The position numbers were made by a program, and so were the translations under genes. A DNA stretch of 64,000 nucleotides from Ignavibacteriales bacterium (GTDB taxonomy: Bacteria > Bacteroidota > Ignavibacteria > UBA10030 > SZUA-254), in contig JACRMQ010000007.1 in NCBI GenBank assembly GCA_016214905.1, positions 396,408 through 460,407 on the forward strand, written 5' to 3'. Under the pieces are notes generated by a model. It was not told the origin of the DNA. It saw only the letters and a program-made list of their open reading frames with translations, and made no database searches. Positions within the stretch are counted from its first letter, which is position 1; each line of letters begins with the position of its first letter. Shown one piece after another: positions 4,808-56,190 of the stretch.

Positions 4808-5410
4808 ATGATCTCCGGAATTATACTCGCTGCGGGTTCATCCCGACGGATGGGAAGTCCGAAATCTCTCCTTAAAATCGGAGAGAAAACATTTTTGCAA
4901 CATATCGTCGATGTTCTTCACTCTGCTCGCGTTATCGATATCGTTATAATACTTGGCGCAGAGGCGGAAGAAATTCGGAAATCTCTTTCATGGTTCGATG
5001 GTAAAACAGTTGTCAATGAAGATTGGCAAAAAGGACAACTAACTTCGATCATAAAAGGAATCGATGCGTTGGATTTAAATTCAACGGAACCGGAAGAGAT
5101 TAATGGAGCAATGATTTGCCCGGTTGATCACCCGCTTCTTATACAATCACTTTTGGTAGATTTACTTCAGGGATATTGGACATCGAAGAAGAAAATTATT
5201 ATACCCACATTCAACAGTAGACGCGGACACCCGGTTATTTTTGATAAAAAATATTTTGACGAACTCCGGTCTGCTTCGCATGATGTCGGAGCGCGGTCTG
5301 TTATTCATAAACATTCTGATGATGTTTGCGAAGTTCCCGTAAATGAAGAAGGTGTTTTGATTAATATCGACACGCAGGAGGATTATTTAAAATACATTTT
5401 GAAGCATTAA
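4808..5410 (+). CDS. MobA-like NTP transferase (molybdenum cofactor cytidylyl/guanylyltransferase, MocA-like)
   Basis: 200 aa. N-terminal GIILAAGSSRRMGSPK nucleotidyltransferase motif. Lies near the XdhC gene. Confidence 0.7.
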   Translation: MISGIILAAGSSRRMGSPKSLLKIGEKTFLQHIVDVLHSARVIDIVIILGAEAEEIRKSLSWFDGKTVVNEDWQKGQLTSIIKGIDALDLNSTEPEEINGAMICPVDHPLLIQSLLVDLLQGYWTSKKKIIIPTFNSRRGHPVIFDKKYFDELRSASHDVGARSVIHKHSDDVCEVPVNEEGVLINIDTQEDYLKYILKH

Positions 5411-8860: not shown

Positions 8861-9595
8861 TTATTTATCTCCTTCTTGCGTTAATTGTTCAAGATCTTTC
8901 ATGAGTGCTTTGCCTTCTGTAGCTAAAATCTTTCGCTCGCGGTCATTGATTCCATCTTCGATGTTAACCTCCGATAGGTTCGGATACCGGGATGATAGAT
9001 AATCAAAAAGTCCGTTTTGCTTTTTGAATAATTCCAAAAGTTCCGAACCAATCATTCGCATAGGATCCAAGCTAATCCCAGCGTTATTTAATGAGGATGA
9101 AAAACCTTCTTTAACTTTCGGTGTTACTATGCCGAGAATGTTCCTCGCATCGGAGTTAGTATAAGAAATATCCGATCCGGTGTTTCTTTTCGTTGTGCGC
9201 AAATGCGTTTCCAGATCGGAAATTTTTCGTGCATCCCGCGATTGTTGTGTTACAAACAACAAAGTTGCAGACAAAACCATGATGCTCAATGCCGGTTTCA
9301 GCCACCCGAATATTACATCTAAATTCAGAGATTTCCTTTTGCTCACTGCATTCCTGCCATTTGTTTTCACAATCCGATTGATCATCTCGTTGACAAGAGA
9401 AATATCATCCGACATATCCGGAGTAGTTTCCCGAACCGGAGAAAGAGCAACATCAATCGAATGCAGTTGCTCTATAATATCCCTGCATTGAGAACAGTTC
9501 TTGGTATGTTCAATCACCTTCTGATTTTCATCAGCCGATAACTCACCTTTTCGATAAAGATAAATCAGAGGTTCTATTTTTCTGCATTCATTCAT
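8861..9595 (-). CDS. Anti-sigma factor (zf-HC2 zinc-finger type) with transmembrane segment
   Basis: 244 aa. N-terminal H-x3-C-x2-C motif (HTKNCSQCRD) and a central TM helix. Overlaps the sigma factor gene by 4 nt. Confidence 0.65.
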   Translation of the reverse strand: MNECRKIEPLIYLYRKGELSADENQKVIEHTKNCSQCRDIIEQLHSIDVALSPVRETTPDMSDDISLVNEMINRIVKTNGRNAVSKRKSLNLDVIFGWLKPALSIMVLSATLLFVTQQSRDARKISDLETHLRTTKRNTGSDISYTNSDARNILGIVTPKVKEGFSSSLNNAGISLDPMRMIGSELLELFKKQNGLFDYLSSRYPNLSEVNIEDGINDRERKILATEGKALMKDLEQLTQEGDK

Positions 9596-10188
9596 AATTG
9601 CTCACTTCCTTGCAATCGATTTACAGCGATGCGAATTCTCCGCCGTGCATAGCAGAGATTTGTTTTTACTGAACCGATTGACATACCAGCCATTTCCGCT
9701 ATTTCCTCAATTGAAAAATCCAGAATATCGCGAAGATGAAAAACAAGATATTCTTTCGGAGGCAGATTTCTTGATTCGGAAATGACATGATCGCAAAGAT
9801 CAGATTTCTCGGCTTCAGAATGGAAATCCCGGCTGTCGGCAACATCGTTATTCCCGAATAAACTTCCCGTGTAACCAAAAATATTTTTCTGCCGTGAATT
9901 CATTTTTATTTTGTCATAGCATAAATTGACAACGATCTTATAGATCCATGTGGTGAATTTAATTTCCTTGCGATATTTTCCAAGATTGTTCCAGACACGT
10001 ATAAATGCTTCCTGTACGACATCTTTTGAGTTCTCTTCGTCATGCAATAACCGGAACGCGACCGCGTATGCATATTGTTTCTGCGAGTCCATGAGCGATG
10101 CGAATGCCGCGATATCTCCGTCCAAGCTTTTCCGGACAAGTTCCGGCAAATCAGGTTTCTGCAGTTCCGATTTCTGTGAATTCCTCAT
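9592..10188 (-). CDS. RNA polymerase ECF-type sigma-70 factor
   Basis: 198 aa. Sigma-70 region 2 (FTTWIYKIVVNLCYD) and region 4 HTH (IEEIAEMAGMSIGSVKTNLCYARRRI). Confidence 0.8.
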   Translation of the reverse strand: MRNSQKSELQKPDLPELVRKSLDGDIAAFASLMDSQKQYAYAVAFRLLHDEENSKDVVQEAFIRVWNNLGKYRKEIKFTTWIYKIVVNLCYDKIKMNSRQKNIFGYTGSLFGNNDVADSRDFHSEAEKSDLCDHVISESRNLPPKEYLVFHLRDILDFSIEEIAEMAGMSIGSVKTNLCYARRRIRIAVNRLQGSEQL

Positions 10189-12175: not shown

Positions 12176-13057
12176 TCAACCAAATACACCATTCCTCATC
12201 GCCGCGATATGATTCGGAGTTGTCCCACAGCATCCGCCGATAATTTTTACACCGACAGTCAGCAACTCCCGACTTTTTTCTGCCATGAACTCGGGTGTCT
12301 CATTGTAAATTAATTCACCGTTCTTCATTACCGGCAGTCCAGCGTTTGATTGAATTATTATCGGAAGATCGGTGTGCTTGCGGAATTCTTGGGCGATCTC
12401 AATCATCCTCTCAATACCATTACCGCAATTTGATCCGATTACATCAACACCGGCTTCCGTAAGTCCATCTACCGCTTGCTTAATCGAGACACCCATAATT
12501 GTATAAAACCCGCGTGGAGTTTTATCAAATGTCATTGTTGCACAAACAGGTATCTCTGAAGAAATTGATCTAACGGCTCTTACGGCAAGAATTGTTTCGT
12601 TTAAATCTGTCATGGTTTCAATGCAAATCAAATCTACACCGTTGCAGATCAATATTTTCAATTGTCGAAGATAAGACTCGAATATCGTAATCGATTTCGT
12701 GTCGCCAAATGGTTCTAAAAGTTTCCCAGATGGTCCGCATGATGCGGAAACATAAGCTTTGTCTTTAACCACTTTTCTTACTGCCTGCACGGCTTTTGAG
12801 TTTATTTCTTCTGTTTTATCGTCGAGGCCGTATGCTGAAAGTTTAAGTGGTGAACCACCGAATGTATTTGTCTGGATTATTTCAGCCCCCGCATCTAAAT
12901 ACAGACGAGCGATATCTTCTAAAACTTCAGGATGGTCAAGGTTCATCAACTCCGGACATTCACCCGGCTTTAATCCACGCTGGAAAAGCATTGTACCCAT
13001 CGCGCCATCGGCGATGATTACTTCTGGTCGCTTTAATCTTTCGACAAAAGATATCAT
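12176..13057 (-). CDS. Homocysteine S-methyltransferase domain protein (PF02574-like; MetH N-terminal-domain homolog), stand-alone
   Basis: 293 aa. Zn-ligand motifs NCG (IGSNCGNG) and GGCCGTTP near the C-terminus. Adjacent to the corrinoid protein gene. Confidence 0.75.
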   Translation of the reverse strand: MISFVERLKRPEVIIADGAMGTMLFQRGLKPGECPELMNLDHPEVLEDIARLYLDAGAEIIQTNTFGGSPLKLSAYGLDDKTEEINSKAVQAVRKVVKDKAYVSASCGPSGKLLEPFGDTKSITIFESYLRQLKILICNGVDLICIETMTDLNETILAVRAVRSISSEIPVCATMTFDKTPRGFYTIMGVSIKQAVDGLTEAGVDVIGSNCGNGIERMIEIAQEFRKHTDLPIIIQSNAGLPVMKNGELIYNETPEFMAEKSRELLTVGVKIIGGCCGTTPNHIAAMRNGVFG

Positions 13058-13172
13058 AATTATTTCTTAATGGTTCGGTGTTAGTTGTTGGTTATTTGTC
13101 ATTAGTTATTGGTCATTAGCTATTAGGCATTAACCATTGACTATTAACATTTGTTTTTCGGATATTATCTTT

Positions 13173-13811
13173 TCATGAATGTCCTAAAATGCGTTTGACG
13201 GATTCCACAGCGCTCATACCGTCGAAGCAATAAGCGTCCGCGCCAATCTCTTTTGCGTATTCAGAAGAAAGCGGCGCTCCGCCGACAATAAATTTTTTCT
13301 TTCCGTAAATCCGCCGTTCTCTTGCAAGATCAATCACCTTTTTCATAACCGGCATCGTTGTGGTGAGGAGTGCAGACATGCCGATTATTTCTGCATTTTC
13401 TTTTTCCGCTGTGTCGAGAAATTTTTCAGGAGAAACATCATTGCCTAAATCAATAACCTCGAAGCCAGCGCCTTTAAGCATAATGGCAACAAGATTTTTA
13501 CCGATGTCGTGCAAATCTCCTTGAACAGTTCCGATAACTACTTTGCCGATAGTTGGAATTCCTTCCTTAAGCATCAATGGTTTCAGCAAATCCATGCCGG
13601 TGTACATTGCTTTTGCCGCAAGTAGGACATCCGGCAGGAAAATCTCGTGCTGTTTGAATTTTTCTCCAACAACAGACATGCCGGCAATGAGTCCTTCATC
13701 GAGAATAGTTTTAGTGTCAATGTTTTCATTGATTGCCTGTTGAGTAAGCTCGGCAACATTCTTCGAGTTACCTTGTTGAAGTTGCTCAGAAAGTTTTTGT
13801 ATGATGTTCAT
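13173..13811 (-). CDS. Corrinoid (cobalamin-binding) protein, MtbC/MtmC/MttC-like
   Basis: 212 aa. B12-binding cap followed by a Rossmann-like B12-binding domain carrying the DxHxxG motif (GDLHDIGKN). Confidence 0.8.
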   Translation of the reverse strand: MNIIQKLSEQLQQGNSKNVAELTQQAINENIDTKTILDEGLIAGMSVVGEKFKQHEIFLPDVLLAAKAMYTGMDLLKPLMLKEGIPTIGKVVIGTVQGDLHDIGKNLVAIMLKGAGFEVIDLGNDVSPEKFLDTAEKENAEIIGMSALLTTTMPVMKKVIDLARERRIYGKKKFIVGGAPLSSEYAKEIGADAYCFDGMSAVESVKRILGHS

Positions 13812-13940
13812 GTTAATTCCAATATGTTCTCTGTTTTAAGTATTGAGTTTTCTAAATCTTGAATATTCCATCCTACATTATTCTTCATCCTATGCTATAC
13901 GCGGACATGCACGAGTTGATAGTAAATGTAATTCTTAATT

Positions 13941-14372
13941 TCATCTCATTATCATCATCTTAGAGAGAGCACTCCTATTGCCAACCTGACATTTTAGCAA
14001 GTAGACACCCGTATTGATATGGAAATCAGTCGCTTTGAATTTGTAGTTTCCAGATAATAGATAACCACTGAAAGCTTCGCAGATAAATTTATGATTTAAT
14101 TCTAAAAAGGAAATCGTTACCGTATTCTCCCGAAACACATGAAAACTTATGTCGGTAGTTGGAGAAAAAGGAGATGAAGAGGATGGAACGATTAACACAG
14201 AATCCTTCAAGGTGACCCCTGATAACGAATCTTGAAGTTTTGTGATATCACCCTTGACATATTGCTCCTCGAAAGGTATTAACGCTTCAGTAGATACAAC
14301 GTTCTTTGAGGAACATCCGTTTAGTAGATTAATGAATATTGCCAAAACTATCCGACTAGTAAGATTATTCAT
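13941..14372 (-). CDS. Small lipoprotein, unknown function, possible T9SS-type C-terminal sorting domain
   Basis: 143 aa. Signal plus lipobox (LLNGCSS). The C-terminal ~60 aa resemble Por/T9SS CTDs (GVYLLKCQVGN). Weak evidence. Confidence 0.35.
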   Translation of the reverse strand: MNNLTSRIVLAIFINLLNGCSSKNVVSTEALIPFEEQYVKGDITKLQDSLSGVTLKDSVLIVPSSSSPFSPTTDISFHVFRENTVTISFLELNHKFICEAFSGYLLSGNYKFKATDFHINTGVYLLKCQVGNRSALSKMMIMR

Positions 14373-14440
14373 AAACTAATTAATCCTAAGATATAAATAT
14401 TATTAAGTGTATGATTGTACATAACATCCATCATCCTTCA

Positions 14441-15157
14441 TCATTCATCCTTCATCGTTATTATTCTCTCCCTACATTCATGTGTTGCACAACTACCGCA
14501 GAATGCGAAAGTATCGTCAAATTGGAAAATCTTTTTCTTACCCGAAATAATAACTCCGCTTATCGACTTCAACGGTTCCATCAAAAAGCTTTCCCTTAGA
14601 CTGATACCTATATCCTCAGGATGAAGAGACTTAAATAATTTTCGTTGACCGCTTACATGCCAGCCGCAATATCCCGGACTGAAGCGAAGAACACCGCTTT
14701 CTGCTTTGAAACGGCCGATATTATTCAGGTGGGATCGGTAGTAATTTTCAATTGATTCGGCGGTCATTTCTGCTGCTTCCGAGGCAACGGCGTCAAGCAT
14801 AGAGCCGAGAGCAAAATCGTTTGTATAAAATAATCGCGATATTTCTGCGCACACTTCATCTTCGATTGTAACAGCAAAAAGAGCCAGATCGTCGGATGCT
14901 TCGAAGATATTTTTTACAGGTGAATCGGTTTCGTTATTTCCTTCTCCCGAGTATACATTTTTGAATTCTTCTTTTGATAATTCTTGTATAACACCAATAG
15001 GAAATGCAAGTTTACTAAAAATTGAGATTGCTTCCTCGGCAAGTTTAACCGTGCGTCCATTCACGTTAATGTGATTCGGAATCCCCTGTCGTTGGAGGAT
15101 TGTATTCACTCGTGGAATAACAGAGTTTACGGGTATGTTGATTATTTTTCGCATCAA
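14441..15157 (-). CDS. Methionine-synthase B12-activation (reactivation) domain protein (Met_synt_B12-like)
   Basis: 238 aa. Resembles stand-alone vitamin-B12-dependent methionine synthase activation-domain proteins. The ATG at 15152-15154 overlaps the MttB stop codon (ATGA-type overlap). Confidence 0.55.
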   Translation of the reverse strand: MMRKIINIPVNSVIPRVNTILQRQGIPNHINVNGRTVKLAEEAISIFSKLAFPIGVIQELSKEEFKNVYSGEGNNETDSPVKNIFEASDDLALFAVTIEDEVCAEISRLFYTNDFALGSMLDAVASEAAEMTAESIENYYRSHLNNIGRFKAESGVLRFSPGYCGWHVSGQRKLFKSLHPEDIGISLRESFLMEPLKSISGVIISGKKKIFQFDDTFAFCGSCATHECRERIITMKDE

Positions 15158-16626
15158 TCTCTTTTTGGCAATTCATTCATTCCAAATTTATGCGCTTCTG
15201 CCGACATTAGTTCTATCAAATCGGATTGAATATTTTCTGCAAGTCGTGTGGGCTGATACGACTTGAGTTGTTTTTCTATTTCACGAGTTGCTCGATCCCA
15301 TTCGGTTAAGCTTCCGTCTTCTTCCCAGCGTGAACGGTTTGCCCTGTTAATTACATTCCCCGGAAGATAATCTTCTCCTTTAAAATATTTTCTCGTATGG
15401 TCGGCAATGAGAAGATGTTTGTCGCGCAGCAATTCTTCGAATATCGGTAGGGAAGGAAAATCTTCCTTCGGTTCAATTCCATTTACTAATCGAAGCATTG
15501 TTCCGCAAATTTCGTTATCGATCACTAATTTTTCCAAACTGATGCAGCTTTCGAAATCGATCATTCCGGGACCGGAGATGTTATTTATACCTGCAAGAGC
15601 AGCAAGTGTTGCGCCGGTTGCAGTTTCAAATCCGGCTTGCACATCAAGCGACTTCGCATCAGTCAATCCGATATAAGCCTGTGTTGGTATGCCAAGATAT
15701 TTTCCAATTTCATTGTAAGCGCAGTCTATCATCATTGTTGCGATTGAACCCATTGGTGTAGTTTCATATCGGACATCGAAGAAAGCCGGTGAGCCGCCGT
15801 ATAAAACCGGTGTTCCCGGATTAAACATCTGACTTATTACAAGTCCGCTCAAAGTTTCCGCAGTGTGCTGGACAAGTGTTCCAACAATTGTCACCGGCGA
15901 CATGAAACCAGAAAGAGGCATCGCAATATATTCTACAGGAATAGAATAAGCGGAACAATCGATCAGGTTTTGCGATGTAACCTTGCTCCACTTCAATGGA
16001 GAAGTTGGACAACATGAAAATACAGTAAGTGGTTTGGCTTTTAGATTTTCTTTGGTGCCGCGGATAGCAAGCTGTAGATTTTTCATAATCTCAAAAGCTT
16101 CAATCGTAAACGCGCCTGTTACAACAGGTTTCTCGCAGTAAAGCAAATTTAGATAAAGGCGATAGCTGTCGGAAATTTTTTCGTGTACATCGGATGGAAT
16201 CATGGCGGTTGATTGGGATGCGATATTTTTCATCTTCGACATCAATTTTGCATAACGGATATAATCGGTAGTGGTTGGCTTCCTGACTGTTCTGGTTGAC
16301 CCGTCAAGATAATAAATTGCCGCCGAGCCGGGCGTGAAGTTCACATTGAAACCAGAAAGATCAACTGATTCGTTGCCAAGAATATCGTATAACTTGAATG
16401 AGTGTGGTGTGGCAGCGATTGCTTTATCGATTAAAGATTGAGTAAAAAATATTTTCTGTGTGTTTTTATCAACTCTCGCTCCGTGATCTGCAAGCAAAGT
16501 GAGTATTCGCTCGTTGTGAATTTCGATCCCGAGCTTACACATTATATCGCGGGCTTCTGAGATAATGCGTTCTTTTAGGTTGTTTTCCAAGAAACTGACA
16601 ACAGGTCTCAAATCTTTTCCTTTCAT
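15154..16626 (-). CDS. MttB-superfamily methyltransferase (non-pyrrolysine trimethylamine / glycine-betaine:corrinoid methyltransferase family)
   Basis: 490 aa. The N-terminus matches the MttB-family consensus (LxxxxLExIhxaslxILeevGvevhneeaLellkeaGarVD), here LENNLKERIISEARDIMCKLGIEIHNERILTLLADHGARVD. Length is typical for the family. No in-frame amber codon. Confidence 0.7.
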   Translation of the reverse strand: MKGKDLRPVVSFLENNLKERIISEARDIMCKLGIEIHNERILTLLADHGARVDKNTQKIFFTQSLIDKAIAATPHSFKLYDILGNESVDLSGFNVNFTPGSAAIYYLDGSTRTVRKPTTTDYIRYAKLMSKMKNIASQSTAMIPSDVHEKISDSYRLYLNLLYCEKPVVTGAFTIEAFEIMKNLQLAIRGTKENLKAKPLTVFSCCPTSPLKWSKVTSQNLIDCSAYSIPVEYIAMPLSGFMSPVTIVGTLVQHTAETLSGLVISQMFNPGTPVLYGGSPAFFDVRYETTPMGSIATMMIDCAYNEIGKYLGIPTQAYIGLTDAKSLDVQAGFETATGATLAALAGINNISGPGMIDFESCISLEKLVIDNEICGTMLRLVNGIEPKEDFPSLPIFEELLRDKHLLIADHTRKYFKGEDYLPGNVINRANRSRWEEDGSLTEWDRATREIEKQLKSYQPTRLAENIQSDLIELMSAEAHKFGMNELPKRD

Positions 16627-16731
16627 ATCTGAAATAGTAATCTAATATCTGAATATAAAATATATATTTCAACTTGATACAAAATCATATTAAATGTAAA
16701 TTACATTCCGTTATCAATTATGGAGATTTAA

Positions 16732-18255: not shown

Positions 18256-19587
18256 ATGACGATAAAACCAAAACTAAATACTTTCGATACGACAATGATT
18301 GTTGTCAGTTTGGTGATTGGCATCGGAATTTTCCGCACGCCAGCAATTGTTGCATCATCAGTCAATAGTACTGAATTATTTTTTGCCGCATGGATATGCG
18401 GAGGAATATTTAGCTTCATAGGTGCGCTTACGTTTGCAGAAATTGGTTCGCGTTTTACGAAGCCGGGTGCGTATTATAAAGTTGTGGCAGAATGTTATCA
18501 CCCAGCAGCAGCGTTTATGCTGAATTGGGCGAACGTTGTTATTGTAAACACCGCAGGCACTGCAGCGGTTGCAATGATAGGAGCCGAGTATCTTACCCCG
18601 ACTTTGTTTTCTTCAGTTACCGATCTAACATTCACAACGCAACTTGTTGCCGCCGGATTAACACTTTTTCTTCTGGTTATAAATTACCTCGGAATCAAAA
18701 CAGGTGCGTGGACGCAGAATATTCTTACAATATTTAAAATAGGCATGATGCTGTTGATTGTAGCCGCGGCTTTTTACTTGGGCAATCAGTCATCACCTGT
18801 AGTTCAAGAAATTCCGGCCTCACATTCCTGGTGGATGGGATTTGCATTAGGATTGGTTTCTGTCTATTACACTTATGGCGGGTATCAGAATACTCTTAAC
18901 TTCGGCGGTGATGTACAATCTCCGAAGCGGAACATACCGCGTGCAATATTTTTCGGTATCGCAATCATAATAATTTTATACCTGCTTATTAATTGGGCGT
19001 ACATTCATCTGCTCGGATTAGAAGGTGTGTCGGGATCAAAACTTGTTGCAGCGGAAGTGGCTCGAGTTTGTTTCGGCAATTCAGCGTCAACCGTTATCTC
19101 AATAACAATTTTTCTCTCGGCAATGGGATTTGTAAACGTCACGTTAATGCAGATACCGAGGACATATTATGCAATGGCAATGGATGGCGCACTTCCTAAA
19201 ATATTTATGAGGATAAATAGCAAAACACAAGCACAGGAATTCACGCTTATATTTTTCGGTGGTATGGTACTATTGTCGATTTTTCTTTTGGGGACCTTCG
19301 AAAAACTTGTCAATTATATTATGTTCTTCGATAATCTGAACAATGCCATCGTTGCTTCGACGATATTTGTTCTCAGGAAGCAATCAAAAATAACTTCCGA
19401 AACAGATTCCTACAAAATGCCGTGGTTTCCCGTGATGCCGTTCTTATTTATATTGTTTTTATTAGGAATTTCGATAAATGTATTTATAAACCAGCCAACC
19501 GATACTTACATCGGAATTGGAATTTTAATAACCGGTTATCCGTTCTATCGTTTAATGAAGATGGTTAGGAGTGACAAAAATTCTTAA
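18256..19587 (+). CDS. APC-family amino acid permease (MmuP-like candidate)
   Basis: 443 aa with ~12 predicted TM helices and APC signature regions. Immediately upstream of a homocysteine S-methyltransferase gene, as in mmuP-mmuM. Confidence 0.65.
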   Translation: MTIKPKLNTFDTTMIVVSLVIGIGIFRTPAIVASSVNSTELFFAAWICGGIFSFIGALTFAEIGSRFTKPGAYYKVVAECYHPAAAFMLNWANVVIVNTAGTAAVAMIGAEYLTPTLFSSVTDLTFTTQLVAAGLTLFLLVINYLGIKTGAWTQNILTIFKIGMMLLIVAAAFYLGNQSSPVVQEIPASHSWWMGFALGLVSVYYTYGGYQNTLNFGGDVQSPKRNIPRAIFFGIAIIIILYLLINWAYIHLLGLEGVSGSKLVAAEVARVCFGNSASTVISITIFLSAMGFVNVTLMQIPRTYYAMAMDGALPKIFMRINSKTQAQEFTLIFFGGMVLLSIFLLGTFEKLVNYIMFFDNLNNAIVASTIFVLRKQSKITSETDSYKMPWFPVMPFLFILFLLGISINVFINQPTDTYIGIGILITGYPFYRLMKMVRSDKNS

Positions 19588-19706: not shown

Positions 19707-20594
19707 GTGCGACCGATGAATCATATTCTTAATCACATCTTAGATGATCAGCTGATTATTACAGATGGTGCATGGGGTACGGTGCTTCATGCGTTAGGAT
19801 TAAAACCCGGTGAATGCGCAGACAGCTGGAATATCAATAATCCCGAAAAAGTTAAACAAATCGCCCGCGCATATACCAAAGCCGGCAGTTGCATATTACT
19901 CACAAATACATTTCGGGCGAATCGGATAACACTTAAAACATTTAATCTTGATTCGAAAATTAAAGAAATCAATTCAACTGGTGTGAAAATATCAAAACAT
20001 GCGATCCGCGATCGAGGTTTTGTTTTTGCATCGATCGGTCCGATCGGCAGTTCTTTAGAAACGAATAAAATTCCCGACGAAGAACTAAAAGAAATATTTT
20101 ACGAACAGGCGATCATTCTGGCAGACGCCGGCGCAGACGCGATTGTAATTGAAAGTGTTTTCAATTTGAACGAAGGATATATTGCGTTGGAAGCGGTAAA
20201 ACGCACAGGATTACCGGTTGTTTTTTCTATGACTTTCGATAAAGAAAATTTATTAAGCTCAAAAGATGATTTACATGCAACGCACGAATACAAAGAGAAA
20301 TTATCCGGAGCGGATATAGTCGGACTCAACTGTGGAACCGGAGTGGAAGATAGTCTTCTTCACATAAAAAAAATACGAACATACACCAAAGCTCCTTTAT
20401 GGTTCAAACCAAGCGCTGGAATTCCATCCATTGTTCGGAATAAAATTGTATATTCGACTACGATAAAAAATTTTGTTGAATACTCGCGTGTTCTAAAATC
20501 TCTCGGCGTAAAATTTATTGGAGGATGCTGCGGCACAACACCGGAATATATTAAACTGCTGTCAATGACATTGCGGAATAAAAGTGAATCTTGA
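19707..20594 (+). CDS. Homocysteine S-methyltransferase (MmuM/BHMT-family) paralog
   Basis: 295 aa. ITDGAWGT N-terminal motif, NCG (VGLNCGTG) and GGCCGTTPEY motifs. Confidence 0.75.
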   Translation: MRPMNHILNHILDDQLIITDGAWGTVLHALGLKPGECADSWNINNPEKVKQIARAYTKAGSCILLTNTFRANRITLKTFNLDSKIKEINSTGVKISKHAIRDRGFVFASIGPIGSSLETNKIPDEELKEIFYEQAIILADAGADAIVIESVFNLNEGYIALEAVKRTGLPVVFSMTFDKENLLSSKDDLHATHEYKEKLSGADIVGLNCGTGVEDSLLHIKKIRTYTKAPLWFKPSAGIPSIVRNKIVYSTTIKNFVEYSRVLKSLGVKFIGGCCGTTPEYIKLLSMTLRNKSES

Positions 20595-20723: not shown

Positions 20724-22544
20724 ATGAAATTGCAAGTGCTCGATTGGATTATCGTTGTTGGTACGTTCATAATATGTTTTCTACCGGCGTTATATTTTAG
20801 CAAGCGCGCCGGAAAAAATACTTCTGAATTTTTCGCCTCAGGCAGATCTGTCCCGTGGTGGCTGGGAGGACTTTCGATGGTTGCAACTACATTCAGCAGC
20901 GATACGCCGAACCTTGTTACCGATATTGTACGACGCCAGGGAGTCGCAGGGAACTGGGTGTGGTGGGCTTTTGTGTTGACAGGAGTTTCAACGGTTTTCT
21001 TCTATGCACGACTCTGGCGCAGATCGGGAGTAATGACGGATCTTGAATTTTATGAACTGAGGTATTCAGGTAAAGCGGCGAGTTTTGTTAGAGGATTCAG
21101 ATCGATTTATTTAGGTTTGTTTTTTAACGCCATGATAATGGCGACAGTCAATTTAGCGGCATGCAAAATTGCCGGGATATTATTCGGGCTTGACCGCTGG
21201 CAAACGCTGATGATAGTTGGTGTACTTAATGTCGCGTTTGCTGCTCAGTCGGGTTTGTGGGGAGTTCTTGTCATCGACATGATTCAATTTTTTATCAAGA
21301 TGACTGCAGTAATTGCAGCAGCATACTTTGCTCTTCAACTTCCTGAAATTGGCGGAATGAGCGGCCTTGTTGAAAAACTTTCTCACACCAGCGGACCTAA
21401 TGGAATAAATTATCTTAATATTCTTCCCGACTTTACCAGTAATTGGGATATTGCGTTGGCTGTCTTTATTATGCCGATAGCAGTTCAATGGTGGGCTGTC
21501 TGGTATCCGGGTGCCGAACCCGGCGGCGGAAGTTATATCGCTCAGAGAATGCTTGCTTCAAAATCAGAAAAAGACTCACTCGGCGCGGTTTTATTTTTCA
21601 ATGTTGCACATTATGTCCTTCGTCCATGGCCCTGGATTATTGTTGGGCTTTGCTCTATTGTTATTTATCCGCAATTATCAGATATTCAAAACGCATTTCC
21701 GAATTTGGACCCGAAACTTCTCGGTCACGATATTGCATATCCCGCAATGTTAAAATTTTTACCTGTCGGTTTTATCGGGTTGATGGTAGGTGGACTTATT
21801 GCTGCGAATTCATCGACCATACTCACTCACCTAAATTGGGGTGCTTCGTATATTGTGCACGATTTTTATCGAAGGTTCATACGTAAAAATTCAGATGAAA
21901 AACATTATGTGCTGGTAGGTAGATTAGTGACTATCGGATTATTTTTATGCGGGGCAGGACTTGTTTTTGTTCTTGATACGGCAAAAGACACATTCGATAT
22001 GATATTACAAGTAGGCGCGGGTACCGGATTAATATATTTAATCCGATGGTTTTGGTGGCGTGTAAATGCCTGGTCGGAAGTTGTCGCTATGATTAGTTCA
22101 TTCGTGATCTCAATGATATTGTTTATTCTGAAAAAACAAGGAATTGAAATCAGCGTTCATATAGGGTTACTGACTACAATCTTTTTCACGACGGCATGCT
22201 GGCTTACCGCTGCATTTCTCGGTCCCCGTACCGACGAAAAAGTTCTTATCGATTTTTACAAAAAAGTTAAACCATTCGGTCCCGGTTGGAAGAGAATAAA
22301 AGAGAAGGCTGGGATTTCAGATTCAGATATCAAAAGTGCGAACGGGAATATACCTCTTGCACTTCTGGGTTGGTTTACAGGATGCATTGTGATATGGTCA
22401 TCTTTGTTCACAGTTGGAAATTTTTTATATGGAAGATTGAATTATGCAATCGGTTTACTTGTAGTTTTTATTGTCAGCGGCATTTCGCTTATATTCGTAA
22501 TTAGAAAATTGTGGTCGGATGGTGGTGAAACAAAAATCGAATGA
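20724..22544 (+). CDS. Sodium:solute symporter (SSS family)
   Basis: 606 aa, ~13-14 TM helices, SSS-type topology and motifs. Overlaps the downstream kinase gene by 4 nt. Confidence 0.65.
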   Translation: MKLQVLDWIIVVGTFIICFLPALYFSKRAGKNTSEFFASGRSVPWWLGGLSMVATTFSSDTPNLVTDIVRRQGVAGNWVWWAFVLTGVSTVFFYARLWRRSGVMTDLEFYELRYSGKAASFVRGFRSIYLGLFFNAMIMATVNLAACKIAGILFGLDRWQTLMIVGVLNVAFAAQSGLWGVLVIDMIQFFIKMTAVIAAAYFALQLPEIGGMSGLVEKLSHTSGPNGINYLNILPDFTSNWDIALAVFIMPIAVQWWAVWYPGAEPGGGSYIAQRMLASKSEKDSLGAVLFFNVAHYVLRPWPWIIVGLCSIVIYPQLSDIQNAFPNLDPKLLGHDIAYPAMLKFLPVGFIGLMVGGLIAANSSTILTHLNWGASYIVHDFYRRFIRKNSDEKHYVLVGRLVTIGLFLCGAGLVFVLDTAKDTFDMILQVGAGTGLIYLIRWFWWRVNAWSEVVAMISSFVISMILFILKKQGIEISVHIGLLTTIFFTTACWLTAAFLGPRTDEKVLIDFYKKVKPFGPGWKRIKEKAGISDSDIKSANGNIPLALLGWFTGCIVIWSSLFTVGNFLYGRLNYAIGLLVVFIVSGISLIFVIRKLWSDGGETKIE

Positions 22545-48595: not shown

Positions 48596-49462
48596 ATGGA
48601 AAATGCTCTTGAGATAAATAATTTAAGAAAAGATTACGGAGACTTTCGTTTAAAAGATGTTACGTTCTCTCTGCCTGAAGGTTATATCATGGGATTAATC
48701 GGTCCGAACGGTGCGGGTAAAACAACAATCATAAAATTGATAATGAATCTTTTGATAAAGCAGGGTGGCAGCATTCGGGTATTTGGTAAAGATCATATCG
48801 AACATGAAGTAGATATTAAATCCCGGATAGGATTCGTATACGACAATCCGAATTATTATGAACACCTTAATCTTAAACAAGTAAAAAATATCATTCGTCC
48901 CTTCTATAAGAATTGGGATGATAAAGTTTTCATGAATCTTGTTGATAAATTCGAATTACCGTTGAAAAAGAATATCAGGAAATTCTCACGCGGTATGGTT
49001 ATGAAAGCAGCGATCGCAATTGCACTCTCACATCATGCCGACTTTATCATTATGGATGAACCGACCTCAGGATTAGATCCGATATTCAGAAGGGAACTGC
49101 TAGATTTACTTTATGACCTACTTCAGAGCGAGAAGAAATCGATTCTGTTTTCCACACATCTTACATCCGACTTAGAGCGTATAGCTGATTATATTACGTT
49201 CATACTGAATGGAAAAATCATTTTCTCTTCAAGCAAAAATGAAATAATGGAGACTTATGCGGTGATTAAAGGAGGGAACGATCTTCTAAACGAGGAAACA
49301 AAAAAATATTTTAAAGGGATTCGAAAAAATGAATTCGGTTTTGAAGCATTAACAAATAATGTTGAAGAGATAAAAGCGACTTTCGGTTCAGTTATTGTAA
49401 TTGAAAAAGCAACGCTGGAAGATATTATGTACTATAGTAACTTGAAAAATGGAAATTCTTAA
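48596..49462 (+). CDS. ABC transporter ATP-binding protein
   Basis: 288 aa. Walker A GPNGAGKTT and Walker B IIMDEPTSGLD. Degenerate signature motif FSRGMVMK. Confidence 0.8.
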   Translation: MENALEINNLRKDYGDFRLKDVTFSLPEGYIMGLIGPNGAGKTTIIKLIMNLLIKQGGSIRVFGKDHIEHEVDIKSRIGFVYDNPNYYEHLNLKQVKNIIRPFYKNWDDKVFMNLVDKFELPLKKNIRKFSRGMVMKAAIAIALSHHADFIIMDEPTSGLDPIFRRELLDLLYDLLQSEKKSILFSTHLTSDLERIADYITFILNGKIIFSSSKNEIMETYAVIKGGNDLLNEETKKYFKGIRKNEFGFEALTNNVEEIKATFGSVIVIEKATLEDIMYYSNLKNGNS

Positions 49463-50174
49463 TCTTATAAGAAAAGATTTTATTGCCGGAGCGATATTCC
49501 TTTTAGGTGTAGCCATCGTTATCCCTTTTATTGCATCTATTGCAATAGCTGCAATGATAGACGATTTTGGTGGAATCATTATTGGCATATTCACCTTTAT
49601 CGTTACCGCTTTATGTATCAGTGCTTCCTTTATTTTTATAGCGATTGACACTTCATTTGGAACAGAGATGACGTATGCAAGTTTACCCGTTAAACGATCT
49701 TCAATAATCGTTGCCCGATACATGTCATCAATTATTATTACCTTGTCAGGTTTCGGTTTGGTGATTTTAGCATGTCTATCATCGGTATATATTTTCAATC
49801 TATCCGATCCTGCTTTTCGTCTGCTTCTAAGTCCACGTGGTATAACGAGTATGATTTCATTTTTACTTTTTATTTTAACAATCATGCTCCCCTTCGTATT
49901 TAAATTTGGTCCGGGCAAAGGAGTAATAGCCGCACTGATATTGCAAATAAGTCTTGTGATAATCAGCCCGGTTTATAATTTTTTGATGAACGTATTGAAC
50001 GATATCTGGGATTTTGATATTACCTACATTTACAATTTACTTCATAACTTCCTAAACTGGATAATGACTTTGCCCGCTATTTATGCTTATCTCTTTGTAT
50101 TCGGCATCGTGTTGACTTTATATATCATTTCAATATCCTTATCAATTCGATTTTACAACAAGAGAGATTTATAA
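49449..50174 (+). CDS. Integral membrane protein, putative ABC-2-type permease component (paralog 1 of 4)
   Basis: 241 aa, ~6 TM helices. Conserved block SLPVKRSSIIVARYMSS is shared with the three downstream paralogs. Confidence 0.5.
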   Translation: MEILNLIRKDFIAGAIFLLGVAIVIPFIASIAIAAMIDDFGGIIIGIFTFIVTALCISASFIFIAIDTSFGTEMTYASLPVKRSSIIVARYMSSIIITLSGFGLVILACLSSVYIFNLSDPAFRLLLSPRGITSMISFLLFILTIMLPFVFKFGPGKGVIAALILQISLVIISPVYNFLMNVLNDIWDFDITYIYNLLHNFLNWIMTLPAIYAYLFVFGIVLTLYIISISLSIRFYNKRDL

Positions 50175-50179
50175 AAAAC

Positions 50180-50836
50180 ATGATGATATTGCAATTAATA
50201 TTAAAAGATATAAGAGCATATGGTAGCTTAATATTTCTTTGGATTCTTTTACCAATGGCGATTTTAAACTCTCTTTTCAGTTTAAGATTCTATCCTGTCG
50301 GCGGATTTATAATAGCAGGGTGTATGGTAATTGCAGTGGCTTGCTCCATTTTATCATTCTCAGAAAAGAAAAAGAATATTGAAATATTGACTCGTAGCCT
50401 ACCAGTAACAATTAGTGAAATTGTGATAGCTCGATTTTTAACTTCGGTCACCATATCGATCATTGGAATGATTTTCTATTACATAGGTACTTACATAGTC
50501 AACCAAATATATATTAATCCCAAGACTAATTTTGAAAATATCAACAGTCCAAAAGTTTTGTTCATTGCGACGTTTTACTTGTTACTTCATAATGCATTAT
50601 TCATTCCTGTAATGTTGAAATTCCGATTTCTCGGTTCGATATTGGCATTTGTTATAGCAATGTTCGCGACGATATTGATTACCGTCTCAATATTTAAACC
50701 TTACAGGTTGGATTTTAATCCATATTTTGGAACAAATGATTCAATTTTAATTTCAACTCTAACTTTATTTGCCATCTTGATACTGGTTATAGCATTTACG
50801 ATATCTCTGTTTGTCTATAAACGAAAAGAATTTTAG
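50180..50836 (+). CDS. Integral membrane protein, paralog 2 of 4
   Basis: 218 aa. N-terminus MMILQLILKDIRAY. Block SLPVTISEIVIARFLTS. Confidence 0.5.
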   Translation: MMILQLILKDIRAYGSLIFLWILLPMAILNSLFSLRFYPVGGFIIAGCMVIAVACSILSFSEKKKNIEILTRSLPVTISEIVIARFLTSVTISIIGMIFYYIGTYIVNQIYINPKTNFENINSPKVLFIATFYLLLHNALFIPVMLKFRFLGSILAFVIAMFATILITVSIFKPYRLDFNPYFGTNDSILISTLTLFAILILVIAFTISLFVYKRKEF

Positions 50837-50845
50837 AGGGAAACG

Positions 50846-51496
50846 ATGATTATCAAATTAATCCTGAAAGATTTAACAGCTTACAAAAAGAACATCATCC
50901 TGAATTTCTTAGCATTCATGATTCTTGGCAATATTTTTATCTTCCGTTATTATCCTTGGCATGTCTATATGATGTATGGATATTTGGCATTTGTTTTTAT
51001 TAGCACTTTTTTCTCGTTTATTGAAATAAATAAGAATGCTGAAGCTCTGACATGCAGTCTTCCTGTCAGCAGATCCGGAATTGTAATTGCAAGGTATCTC
51101 ACATCGGCTGTTTTGATGTTCGGTGGACTTGCACTGTGGTATCTAAACGGATTTGTTGCAGGAGCTGTATACACAGATGCGGCAACAGATTTTAATCGAG
51201 CTGCACATTTAAAAGTCCTCTTCATAGCTGTATTTTTCATAGTGCTACAAACCAGTATATTCCTGCCTGCTTTATTCAAATTCAGATTAATCGGAACAGT
51301 GCTAACATTTGTCGTAGCTCTTGTTGCGGCTGTAATAACTGTAGTTTTGATTTTCAGGCCCTACAGTCGCTCCTTCAATTCATATTTTGTAGAAGGAGAA
51401 TTGGTTGTTATCTCCATTTTAACATCAATAATGGTAGCAGCGCCGGCGCTTTCATTAGTAGTTTCATTAAGTCTTTTTAAAAGAAAAGATATTTGA
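50846..51496 (+). CDS. Integral membrane protein, paralog 3 of 4
   Basis: 216 aa. N-terminus MIIKLILKDLTAY. Block SLPVSRSGIVIARYLTS. Confidence 0.5.
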   Translation: MIIKLILKDLTAYKKNIILNFLAFMILGNIFIFRYYPWHVYMMYGYLAFVFISTFFSFIEINKNAEALTCSLPVSRSGIVIARYLTSAVLMFGGLALWYLNGFVAGAVYTDAATDFNRAAHLKVLFIAVFFIVLQTSIFLPALFKFRLIGTVLTFVVALVAAVITVVLIFRPYSRSFNSYFVEGELVVISILTSIMVAAPALSLVVSLSLFKRKDI

Positions 51497-51505
51497 GGCA
51501 ACGGT

Positions 51506-52159
51506 ATGATATTAAATTTGATTTTGAAGGATATTCGGGGTTACTGGAGATATATAATATTTTCTATCTTTCTGCCGGCAACTCTTTGGATCTCGATACT
51601 GATTATACCGCATTTCCCTGCTCGAGGTAATGTAATATTCTCCACTGCCGCTATAGTTGCAGCAATTTCCTATTTTGCCTTTTCGGAGAAAAAGCAGAGA
51701 CTCGAAACCCTCATTTGCAGTTTACCTATCTCGAGAAGGTCATTTGTCATAGCGCGGTACCTGTTTGCTCTTTGTGTCGCTATTTTTGGATTCGTAATAT
51801 TATACTGTGCATCATACGCAACTTATTTAATCTATTCAATACCGATTTCAGAATTTTTTATAACGTATAATCTGAAATCGTTTTTTATTGCACTTTATAT
51901 TATATCGGTTTCAGTCAGTTTCTTTTTCCCGTTTATTTATAAATTCAGAATTATGGGTATGATATTCACGCTTCCCATTGGATTTACTTTAGCAATGCAC
52001 TCGATGGTACTGATTTTTAATTTTACCAAACAATCGTACAAGCCATATTTTTTAGATACTGACTTTGTAAAAATTATTTTAATTACTCCTCTTATATTAA
52101 TTTTACCAATTATATCTGCAATGATATCAATAAAATTGTATGAACGGAAAAATATATAA
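51506..52159 (+). CDS. Integral membrane protein, paralog 4 of 4
   Basis: 217 aa. N-terminus MILNLILKDIRGY. Block SLPISRRSFVIARYLFA. Confidence 0.5.
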   Translation: MILNLILKDIRGYWRYIIFSIFLPATLWISILIIPHFPARGNVIFSTAAIVAAISYFAFSEKKQRLETLICSLPISRRSFVIARYLFALCVAIFGFVILYCASYATYLIYSIPISEFFITYNLKSFFIALYIISVSVSFFFPFIYKFRIMGMIFTLPIGFTLAMHSMVLIFNFTKQSYKPYFLDTDFVKIILITPLILILPIISAMISIKLYERKNI

Positions 52160-55250: not shown

Positions 55251-56189
55251 TTGAAATTTGTTCGTAAATATGCATATTCAGAAAGATTTATGAAAGGCAT
55301 GGTATTCAATATTCAGCGATATTCTATAAACGATGGGCCAGGTATTCGTACAACCGTTTTCCTAAAAGGATGTCCGCTTCATTGTTTGTGGTGTCATAAT
55401 CCTGAATCAATTTCCACCGATCAAGAAATTGTTCTGCGGGAAGATAGATGTATCCGCTGCGGAAGCTGTATTGAATGCTGCAGCCAACATGCAATCCGGA
55501 ATGAAAGCAACCTTATCGTTACATCGTGTGAGAAATGTATAAGATGTGGAAACTGCGTTGAGGTATGCTATGCCGGCGGGCGGGAGATTGCGGGTAAAGA
55601 GATGTCTGTGGAAGATGTAGTGAAAGAAATTGAAAAAGATATCATCTTTTACAACAGGTCGACAGGTGGAGTTACATTTTCAGGTGGCGAGCCGTTTCTT
55701 CAACATTTGTTTCTAAAGTCTCTTCTCGAAAATTGTAAATCAAAAAACATTCATACGGCAGTAGATACAGCTGGATTTGTCGTGGAAAATATTTTAAACG
55801 GGTTTGAAAATTTGATCGATCTATTTCTATATGATATCAAAACCGTTGACGATTTCAAGCATCGCATGTTCACCGGCGGATCGAATAAAATAATTCTTGA
55901 TAATCTAAGGTTTTTGATAAATCAAGGGAATAATATAATTATTAGAGTACCCGTAATACCGGGATTTAACAATAATCTTCATGATATGAAGTTAGTAGGT
56001 GAGTTTGTTGATTCACTTAAAAATATTTCCGAAATTCATTTATTGCCATATCATAAATCAGGAACGGAAAAATATAAACGATTAGGGATAAAATTTGAAA
56101 TGAATGATGAACCACCTGATTCAACAGCAATGGAGCTTATTGCCGCTGAGATGAAAAAATATGTTCAAACAGTCAAGATAGGCGGATAA
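55251..56189 (+). CDS. Glycyl-radical-enzyme activating enzyme (radical SAM, with two auxiliary ferredoxin-type [4Fe-4S] motifs)
   Basis: Radical SAM motif GCPLHCLWCHNPE plus CIRCGSCIECC and CEKCIRCGNCVEVC. The probable start is MKGMVF at 55290. Confidence 0.8.
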   Translation: MKFVRKYAYSERFMKGMVFNIQRYSINDGPGIRTTVFLKGCPLHCLWCHNPESISTDQEIVLREDRCIRCGSCIECCSQHAIRNESNLIVTSCEKCIRCGNCVEVCYAGGREIAGKEMSVEDVVKEIEKDIIFYNRSTGGVTFSGGEPFLQHLFLKSLLENCKSKNIHTAVDTAGFVVENILNGFENLIDLFLYDIKTVDDFKHRMFTGGSNKIILDNLRFLINQGNNIIIRVPVIPGFNNNLHDMKLVGEFVDSLKNISEIHLLPYHKSGTEKYKRLGIKFEMNDEPPDSTAMELIAAEMKKYVQTVKIGG

Positions 56190-56190
56190 T

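Follow-up and report, generated by a model that had tools for sequence, protein, structure and literature searches.

A four-gene cluster that encodes a putative folate-independent, cobalamin-dependent homocysteine methyltransferase was analyzed in a 64-kb stretch of DNA from an Ignavibacteriales bacterium, which is referred to throughout as the window. Five open reading frames (ORFs) are located on the minus strand within positions 12176-16626, and four of these belong to known families according to Pfam and NCBIfam scans: an MttB-superfamily methyltransferase, a stand-alone activation protein of the type found in the methionine synthase MetH (Act), a corrinoid carrier protein (Corr), and a homocysteine S-methyltransferase (HMT). 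The original prediction, made from the nucleotide letters alone, had placed four adjacent genes with these domains on this strand. All four assignments hold, and each of the families that it proposed to look for (PF06253, PF02965, PF02310 with PF02607, and PF02574) was matched. With the inserted fifth ORF excluded, the module occupies ~3.7 kb. The features are as follows:

15154..16626 (-), MttB-superfamily non-pyrrolysine methyltransferase, the proposed methyl donor:corrinoid methyltransferase (MT1); 490 aa; PF06253 MTTB, E 1.2e-69
14441..15157 (-), stand-alone MetH-type activation (AdoMet-binding reactivation) domain protein, Act; PF02965 Met_synt_B12, E 4.3e-11
13941..14372 (-), small ORF of 143 aa between the Act and corrinoid genes; no family match at threshold
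13173..13811 (-), corrinoid (cobalamin-binding) carrier of the methylamine-methyltransferase type, Corr; 212 aa; PF02607, E 7.6e-22, and PF02310, E 1.3e-29
12176..13057 (-), stand-alone Zn-type HMT, the proposed methyl-corrinoid:homocysteine methyltransferase (MT2); 293 aa; PF02574, E 9.3e-69
16627..16731 (-), intergenic region of 105 bp shared with a divergent M28 peptidase gene; the sole non-coding DNA upstream of the first gene

The conservation of the cluster was assessed in a scan of one genome per species, which yielded 197 stretches encoding relatives of the MttB homolog. The best 80 of these, which are 64-96% identical, were examined as loci (designated by L numbers) by tblastn with the window proteins over ±10 kb per locus, and gene families were defined by all-vs-all ORF clustering. 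The loci derive from Ignavibacteriota/Bacteroidota, Zixibacteria, Planctomycetota, Cloacimonadota, Gemmatimonadota, Acidobacteriota, Marinimicrobia, KSB1, Calditrichia, Fischerbacteria, and Stahlbacteria, and at least 11 phyla carry the module. The order MttB-Act-Corr-HMT on one strand is preserved in nearly all 80 loci; a Bacteroidota subgroup has the order Act-MttB-Corr-HMT. All four genes lie within 6 kb in 47 of the 56 loci with at least 3 kb of sequence downstream of MttB, and in one further locus HMT follows an inserted gene. Recurrence of these four genes with identical order and orientation in 47 of 56 loci is far beyond chance. Intergenic gaps typically are -4 to +50 bp, the gap between Corr and HMT is roughly -40 to +65 bp in most loci, and the overlap between the MttB stop and the Act start is recurrent. 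Median identities to the window proteins are 66% for MttB, 65% for Corr, and 61% for HMT, and this degree of sequence conservation across phyla is taken to be in keeping with a housekeeping role. Conservation does not extend to the flanking genes, the next commonest family being present in only 6 of 80 loci. Genes for pterin-binding proteins, MtgA-like or MtgA-type methyltransferases, RamA, MetF2, or one-carbon (C1) oxidation do not co-travel with the cluster within ±10 kb in the 80 loci. Since nothing but the four genes is conserved, the module is self-contained. Moreover, Pfam or NCBIfam scans of ~45 of the 47 window ORFs of at least 150 aa (ORFs 71-694 and 4808-5410 were left out) identified no MetH, MetE, MetF, pterin-binding (PF00809), or RamA protein. 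Thus, the predicted lack of a module that binds methyl-tetrahydrofolate is borne out in the cluster, in the scanned proteins of the window, and among conserved neighbors in the 80 loci. Failure of the neighborhood to be conserved, which the original prediction had named as a ground for its own rejection, is removed by the survey. The module is genuine, occurs widely, and is coherent in function.

The MttB homolog scored 235 bits with PF06253 (cutoff 25) over residues 8-474 of 490 and hence belongs to the superfamily. The score with TIGR02369, the equivalog model for trimethylamine methyltransferases that contain pyrrolysine (Pyl), was 339 bits, below the cutoff of 525, which places the protein outside that family. 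Sequence matches in the PDB included MtgB (2qne/9yce, 181 bits) and Methanosarcina barkeri MttB (7xcl, 160 bits). In a multiple alignment that compared only MtgB and MttB, with sequences reconstructed from PDB alignments, the homolog was ~27-28% identical to each of Desulfitobacterium hafniense MtgB and M. barkeri MttB. The ORF is continuous with no in-frame stop. The position that is Pyl334 in MttB, specified by an in-frame UAG, is Leu321 (UUG) in the window, and the corresponding residue is Leu in 76 and Met in four of the 80 relatives, in agreement with the claim that the gene has no amber codon. A match to the Rfam model PYLIS_3 nevertheless was obtained inside the ORF at 15567-15666 (-) and likewise in 11 relatives, with scores of 38-48 bits against a gathering score of 38 (window; L006, L011, L013, L016, L023, L049, L063, L069). 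This model was built on the region of mttB that starts at the UAG, and has UAG where the window ORF has UUG. As Leu occupies the site and several of the base pairs in the model are non-canonical in the matches, the latter look like coding-sequence homology with true mttB, whether inherited or shared, rather than a recoding signal. This agrees with the placement of homologs from this type of cluster nearer to MttB than to MtgB by Williams et al. (2022; PMC9324843).

The Act protein scored 43 bits with PF02965 (cutoff 25). It comprises 238 aa from a TTG codon or 237 aa from an ATG at 15154; the TTG overlaps the MttB stop codon by 4 nt and the ATG overlaps it by 1 nt (TGATG). The ATG is the likely start, and the overlap between the two genes that had been predicted is evident. 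An AlphaFold (AF2) model based on 54 homologs had a pLDDT confidence score of 91, except for the last ~30 residues. The best Foldseek match was to Thermotoga maritima TM0269 (1j6r; E 2.7e-12, TMt 0.83), and reactivation domains from the MetH of Escherichia coli, human, and Thermus came next (E ~1e-8). The RxxxGY motif for S-adenosylmethionine (SAM, AdoMet) corresponds to R158-FSPG-Y163 within which SPGY is invariant. By profile, fold, and motif Act is a MetH-type activation domain for which AdoMet binding is predicted. Four cysteines, Cys164, Cys220, Cys223, and Cys228, also are invariant among homologs. Cys164 (14666-14668) directly follows the SPGY motif, and the other three (14474-14500) constitute a C-terminal CxxCxxxxC sequence beyond the end of TM0269, which lacks it. 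The model confidence is ~60 in this tail. The four residues probably form a metal or Fe-S site. Act is 100% identical to HZB59_09000 of an Ignavibacteriales metagenome-assembled genome (MAG), which assigns the window to Ignavibacteriota.

Both the cap (PF02607) and the Rossmann B12-binding (PF02310) domains of Corr scored above cutoff. With NCBIfam models, Corr scored 205 bits for the MtgC type, 194 bits for pyl_corrinoid (TIGR02370, cutoff 215), and 140 bits for metH. As the TIGR02370 cutoff and those of the MtgC and MtbC equivalogs were missed, Corr is not assigned to any named specific subfamily. The motifs D99-L-H101-D-I-G104, S146xL148, and GG were invariant in 55 homologs. Thus, the DxHxxG motif that had been noted is present, the scores are those of a carrier of the methylamine type, and the two domains together with the DxHxxG, SxL, and GG motifs identify Corr as the cognate corrinoid protein of a methyltransferase. 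The HMT protein matched PF02574 with 233 bits. Among NCBIfam models it scored 280 bits for the N-terminal domain of YitJ, 226 bits for the alphaproteobacterial 'Bhmt' (PRK07534), 166 bits for metH, and 101 bits for the MmuM type. The alphaproteobacterial 'Bhmt' was renamed MtgE by Mausz et al. (PMC12478193). All 52 homologs counted retain the zinc ligands C211 and C276, and C277, the DGAxG motif (D17-G-A-x-G21), and the ETM motif (E147-T-M) are conserved at 97% or more. The profile, cysteine triad, and motifs are those of a Zn-dependent homocysteine S-methyltransferase, and the protein stands alone, as was anticipated. A second HMT paralog, 37.5% identical to the cluster protein, is encoded at 19707-20594 (+) after an APC-family amino acid permease gene (18256-19587, +) in a layout that resembles mmuP/mmuM for the uptake and use of S-methylmethionine. 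Paralogs similar to this second protein are present near the cluster in L001 (79%) and L003 (48%), where the permease was not detected.

The 143-aa ORF at 13941-14372 separates the Act and Corr genes in the window. It was described originally as a small lipoprotein gene that interrupts the cluster. An ORF does lie at this position, and gene calls in public assemblies include it (two Logan contigs that derive from the same organism), but the lipoprotein signal is below threshold (E 0.13), as is that for a type IX secretion system sorting tail (E 0.065), and no Pfam or NCBIfam match was found at threshold. The ORF is absent from all 80 related loci; it is seen only in the window lineage among the loci compared and is therefore not part of the module. 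A different ORF of 97 aa is placed between the Corr and HMT genes in the closest relatives (L001, 13274-13567; L005, 4978-5271), and looks, by eye, like a ParE/RelE-type toxin. Both ORFs are small, lineage-specific spacer insertions and not components of the system. Upstream of the MttB gene, the intergenic region at 16627-16731 presumably includes the operon promoter. Sigma-70-like matches at 16672-16644 were weak (9/12) and no better than those in shuffled sequences. In the terminator scan, minus-strand matches were confined to the corrinoid ORF, with nothing above shuffled background, and no intergenic terminator on this strand was found at the operon.

The substrate pocket of the MttB homolog was compared with that of MtgB. 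Mutagenesis and a structure with bound substrate have delineated the glycine betaine site of MtgB: Y97 and F356 provide cation-pi contacts, R312 and H348 contact the carboxylate, and R312 is retained in every characterized member (PMC13080624). When the window protein was aligned to 2qne/9yce with phmmer, the counterparts of Y97, R312, H348, and F356 were S101, Q316, S351, and E359; with MAFFT, the column for H348 was displaced by one residue and the other three columns were stable. Across 79 clade members, S101, Q316, S351, and E359 are each invariant or show at least 95% conservation, and the entire signature S101/Q316/L321/S351/E359 is invariant or nearly so. S351 and E359 occupy the columns of Tyr364 and Gly372 of M. 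barkeri MttB. A full-library search produced a continuum of uncharacterized representatives from 62% to ~33% identity to the window protein, and the S-[Q/H]-x-S-E signature is common to most of these (P0121-P0270) down to ~33% identity. Both MtgB and MttB were beyond the best 150 matches of this search, and MtgB (YRLxF) and Pyl-MttB (GYOYG) also are outside the S101-[Q/H]316-x321-S351-E359 pattern. The signature defines a large, uncharacterized branch of the MttB superfamily. The label 'betaine-homocysteine' attached to the cluster in the original prediction is not supported, as the four betaine-binding residues are replaced by S/Q/S/E and the carboxylate-binding arginine is missing; the protein is not an MtgB. 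The methyl donor probably is not glycine betaine. Donors without an acidic group, such as a cationic or small methylated amine, are more likely, and an acidic quaternary amine is disfavored because of the invariant glutamate and missing arginine in the pocket. Lineage-specific hints toward a cationic substrate are provided by neighboring genes. A basic amino acid/polyamine antiporter that resembles AdiC (375 bits with the model for arginine/agmatine antiporters) adjoins the module in 5-6 loci of the FCB group (Bacteroidota/Ignavibacteriota; L007, L008, L038, L059, L077, and L004), and a CBS-domain protein of ~145 aa follows HMT in four Cloacimonadota-type loci (L031, L032, L040, L041).

Two genes elsewhere in the window were considered in relation to the donor and were rejected. 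The SSS-family transporter gene at 20724-22544 heads an operon for glycan use, with genes for a GHMP kinase, a nucleotidyltransferase, GH38, GH35, and fucosidases, and was not retained as a donor importer; a 52%-identical transporter is positioned after HMT in one KSB1 locus. The glycyl-radical enzyme at 56191-58548, a candidate choline trimethylamine-lyase that might generate trimethylamine, is instead the trans-4-hydroxy-L-proline dehydratase HypD (1325 bits with NF043068, cutoff 1100). The gene for HypD follows that for a glycyl-radical enzyme activase (55251-58548, +), and the pair points to an anaerobic lifestyle based on amino acid fermentation.

Taken together, the four genes more probably than otherwise encode a multi-subunit cobalamin-dependent homocysteine methyltransferase, that is, a methionine synthase of mixed parts that employs a non-folate donor. 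We infer a relay in which MT1, an MttB-family TIM barrel, would move a methyl group from the donor to the Co(I) form of the corrinoid protein, after which the Zn-dependent HMT would act as MT2 and pass the group from methyl-Co(III) to Zn-activated homocysteine to yield methionine. When the cofactor escapes oxidatively to Co(II), Act would restore it by reductive methylation with SAM, and the four-cysteine site may take part in this reactivation. The parts form a mosaic, with MT1 and the carrier of the methylamine type and MT2 and the repair domain of the MetH type. To our knowledge, SAM-type reactivation domains are otherwise confined to MetH systems. Catabolic MttB-family systems use RamA (PMC12478193). 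Possession of a SAM-type repair domain, and not the ATP-dependent RamA, fits a low-flux anabolic enzyme. The general relay advanced in the original prediction is the best available explanation for the cluster, although the accompanying statement that no such pathway had been described does not stand. Williams et al. (2022; PMC9324843) reported the same four-gene cluster in MAGs of Ca. Electryoneota and in 'diverse bacteria' and had independently hypothesized corrinoid-dependent methionine synthesis from an unknown methyl donor. In addition, genetic studies in Ruegeria by Mausz et al. (2025; PMC12478193) revealed that MtgB and split MetH modules rely on a single, shared corrinoid protein.

Other explanations must be weighed against the assignment as a folate-independent methionine synthase. 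In Ruegeria pomeroyi, MtgC serves MtgB and a split MetH, and MtgD, whose gene is unlinked to those of several partners, is needed both for growth on glycine betaine and for methionine synthesis (PMC12478193). By the same logic, a split MetH would consist of Corr, HMT, and Act and would be charged by a folate methyltransferase (MtgD-, MetH-Fol-, or MtgA-like) encoded elsewhere in the genome, and MttB would furnish an extra, mainly catabolic input from which methyl groups flow chiefly to tetrahydrofolate and secondarily to homocysteine. A distant pterin-binding gene is possible, as inspection covered the 64-kb window and ±10 kb per locus. However, a folate module is linked in none of the 80 loci, RamA, MetF2, and C1-oxidation genes do not lie beside the cluster, and HMT is tightly linked here whereas mtgE usually is not near mtgBCD in marine proteobacteria (PMC12478193). 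The SAM-type activation domain also is more in keeping with an anabolic enzyme of low flux than with a catabolic enzyme. A shared network of this kind is judged to be unlikely. Alternatively, the donor may be endogenous, for example 5-methyl-tetrahydrofolate, in which case the MttB homolog would be a non-homologous replacement for the folate barrel of MetH and the operon would encode a folate-dependent split MetH. MttB and the Fol domain of MetH alike are TIM barrels from which a corrinoid receives a methyl group, conservation of the proteins across phyla is high, and most loci are devoid of a transporter or of genes for catabolism of a demethylated product. Furthermore, some Zixibacteria MAGs and others are reported to possess 'MttB' as the only corrinoid methyltransferase and no MetH (PMC12484752). 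Nevertheless, every characterized enzyme of the MttB superfamily uses methylated amines, no pterin-binding motif or family match was detected, and the canonical MetH in Electryoneota MAGs with the cluster would make such an enzyme redundant (PMC9324843). We regard an endogenous donor of this type as very improbable.

A further alternative uncouples HMT from Corr. As PF02574 includes the corrinoid-independent MmuM and BHMT types, and a second HMT paralog is situated beside an amino acid permease 3 kb away in the window, the cluster HMT might be an MmuM-type homocysteine enzyme dependent on SAM or S-methylmethionine, or might methylate another thiol, and be located with an MttB-Corr-Act demethylase for purposes of regulation or salvage only. 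The profile scores oppose this possibility, with YitJ (280 bits), 'Bhmt' (MtgE; 226 bits), and MetH (166 bits) all exceeding MmuM (101 bits), and the cluster HMT is only 37.5% identical to the permease-linked paralog. Moreover, HMT abuts the corrinoid gene in most loci across at least 11 phyla, and without an MT2 the MttB, Corr, and Act proteins would have no methyl acceptor. Little credence is given to an independent HMT.

Several observations weigh against the methionine synthase assignment. Stand-alone enzymes of the HMT family can use SAM or S-methylmethionine directly without a corrinoid. No biochemistry or genetics of the four-gene cluster was found in the literature searched. The arginine in RxxxGY varies across part of the Act family (29 of 58) and is conserved at 90% or more in the closer homolog set. 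A minority of loci (L045, L051, L065, L071) have MttB and Corr without Act or HMT nearby. A transporter gene for an exogenous donor does not adjoin the module in most loci. No SAM, cobalamin, or other riboswitch was detected ahead of the operon, either in the window or in 15 loci whose leaders are long, and there is therefore no regulatory link to methionine in these; the sole matches were those to PYLIS_3 within the MttB ORF. Finally, Electryoneota MAGs with the cluster also encode full-length MetH (PMC9324843), and so the module is not necessarily the primary synthase.

The module can be read more boldly, in a form that we consider doubtful as a whole. The MttB branch with the S-[Q/H]-x-S-E signature and without the carboxylate arginine would activate a donor that is not used by the characterized non-Pyl members, for example a small diffusible methylamine (such as protonated trimethylamine) or an endogenous methyl carrier. 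The module would be the primary folate-independent B12 methionine synthase of anaerobic lineages that lack MetH, including some Zixibacteria and others, and Act would be a self-contained reductive-methylation unit with a redox metal or Fe-S center that dispenses with flavodoxin-type partners and RamA. Studies of MAGs routinely label such genes as 'trimethylamine methyltransferase' and read them as evidence of methylotrophy or as partners in mercury methylation (PMC12484752). In a 2025 study, 'MttB' of Zixibacteria and others was interpreted as trimethylamine methyltransferase that feeds HgcA in MAGs without MetH (PMC12484752). The presence of 'MttB' in the absence of MetH is compatible with the module as the methionine synthase of these organisms. 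If the relay operates as proposed in the main reading, methionine, and hence all SAM-dependent methylation, could be derived independently of folate from a methylated compound in a large number of anaerobic phyla, most of them uncultured. Sulfur amino acid synthesis would be tied directly to environmental pools of methylamines or osmolytes and to the supply of cobalamin, and a function would be assigned to a large uncharacterized part of the MttB superfamily.

The remainder of the window includes features that are separate from the module. Genes for an extracytoplasmic function (ECF) sigma factor (sigma-70 ECF family, NCBIfam) and a zf-HC2 anti-sigma factor are downstream of the cluster on the same strand (8861-10188, -). 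This pair was not detected in related loci, for which the queries were the module genes and immediate neighbors only. A same-strand glycan-utilization island at 20724-47939 (+) encodes the SSS transporter, a galactokinase-like GHMP kinase, the nucleotidyltransferase, GH38, GH35, three GH29 fucosidases, a GH20 hexosaminidase, melibiase/alpha-galactosidases, a CehA/McbA metallohydrolase, and two S9 peptidases. It is followed at 48596-52159 (+) by genes for an ABC ATPase and four tandem paralogous ABC-2 membrane proteins (~217-241 aa) in the segment with the lowest GC content in the window (0.34).

The proposed relay resembles and departs from a series of known systems. Like BHMT (SAR11-type Bhmt), the pathway put forward originally transfers a methyl group from an N-methyl donor to homocysteine without folate by means of a PF02574 zinc enzyme. 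In contrast, BHMT acts as one enzyme, with direct binding of betaine and no requirement for cobalamin, whereas the relay in the window would involve a corrinoid protein and a separate MT1 with a donor that probably is not betaine. The MtgABC system of D. hafniense and the MtcB, MtpB, MtyB, and MthB enzymes of Eubacterium limosum similarly pair a non-Pyl MttB-superfamily MT1 with a small cognate corrinoid protein, and the window MT1 has Leu at the Pyl position as does MtgB. However, the predicted MT2 in the window is an HMT with a thiol acceptor and not a tetrahydrofolate methyltransferase, the reactivation domain is of the SAM type in place of RamA, and MT1 is only ~27% identical to MtgB (181 bits) with S/Q/S/E for Y97/R312/H348/F356. 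The homocysteine (PF02574), cobalamin (PF02607/PF02310), and activation (PF02965) modules are held in common with MetH and with the split MetH of T. maritima (TM0268 and TM0269), to the second polypeptide of which Act is nearest in fold. Nonetheless, there is no pterin-binding Fol module (PF00809), for which an MttB-family barrel substitutes, Corr is nearer to methylamine-type carriers than to the Cob domain of MetH (205 vs. 140 bits), and Act has the additional C-terminal CxxCxxxxC. The window proteins are separate, each scores far below the 1011-bit cutoff for canonical MetH (TIGR02082/PRK09490), and they do not constitute this enzyme. A split MetH was reportedly also described by Price et al.

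The MtgBCDE system of R. pomeroyi and Phaeobacter inhibens (PMC12478193) comes close to the window cluster in that an enzyme of PF06253 and an independent PF02574 homocysteine protein share one cobalamin carrier, a corrinoid protein that also stands alone. That system relies on the pterin-binding MtgD for both functions and on RamA/DUF1638 for reactivation, and its genes often are unlinked, with mtgE usually away from mtgBCD (PMC12478193). The window cluster is distinct: no MtgD-type or RamA/DUF1638 gene is present in the scanned window ORFs or conserved within ±10 kb in the 80 loci, the activation protein is of the SAM type, the operon is tight, and the hosts are mostly anaerobic and non-proteobacterial. 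The cluster of Williams et al. (2022) consists of the same four co-located families, and that in the window is a further member, in Ignavibacteriales, of this reported but uncharacterized type; from the identical architecture, the two are likely to fall in the same subclade. The report by Williams et al. takes the form of a short genomic hypothesis, to which the synteny statistics, the pocket residues, the four-cysteine motif of Act, and the ORF insertion specific to the window are added here.

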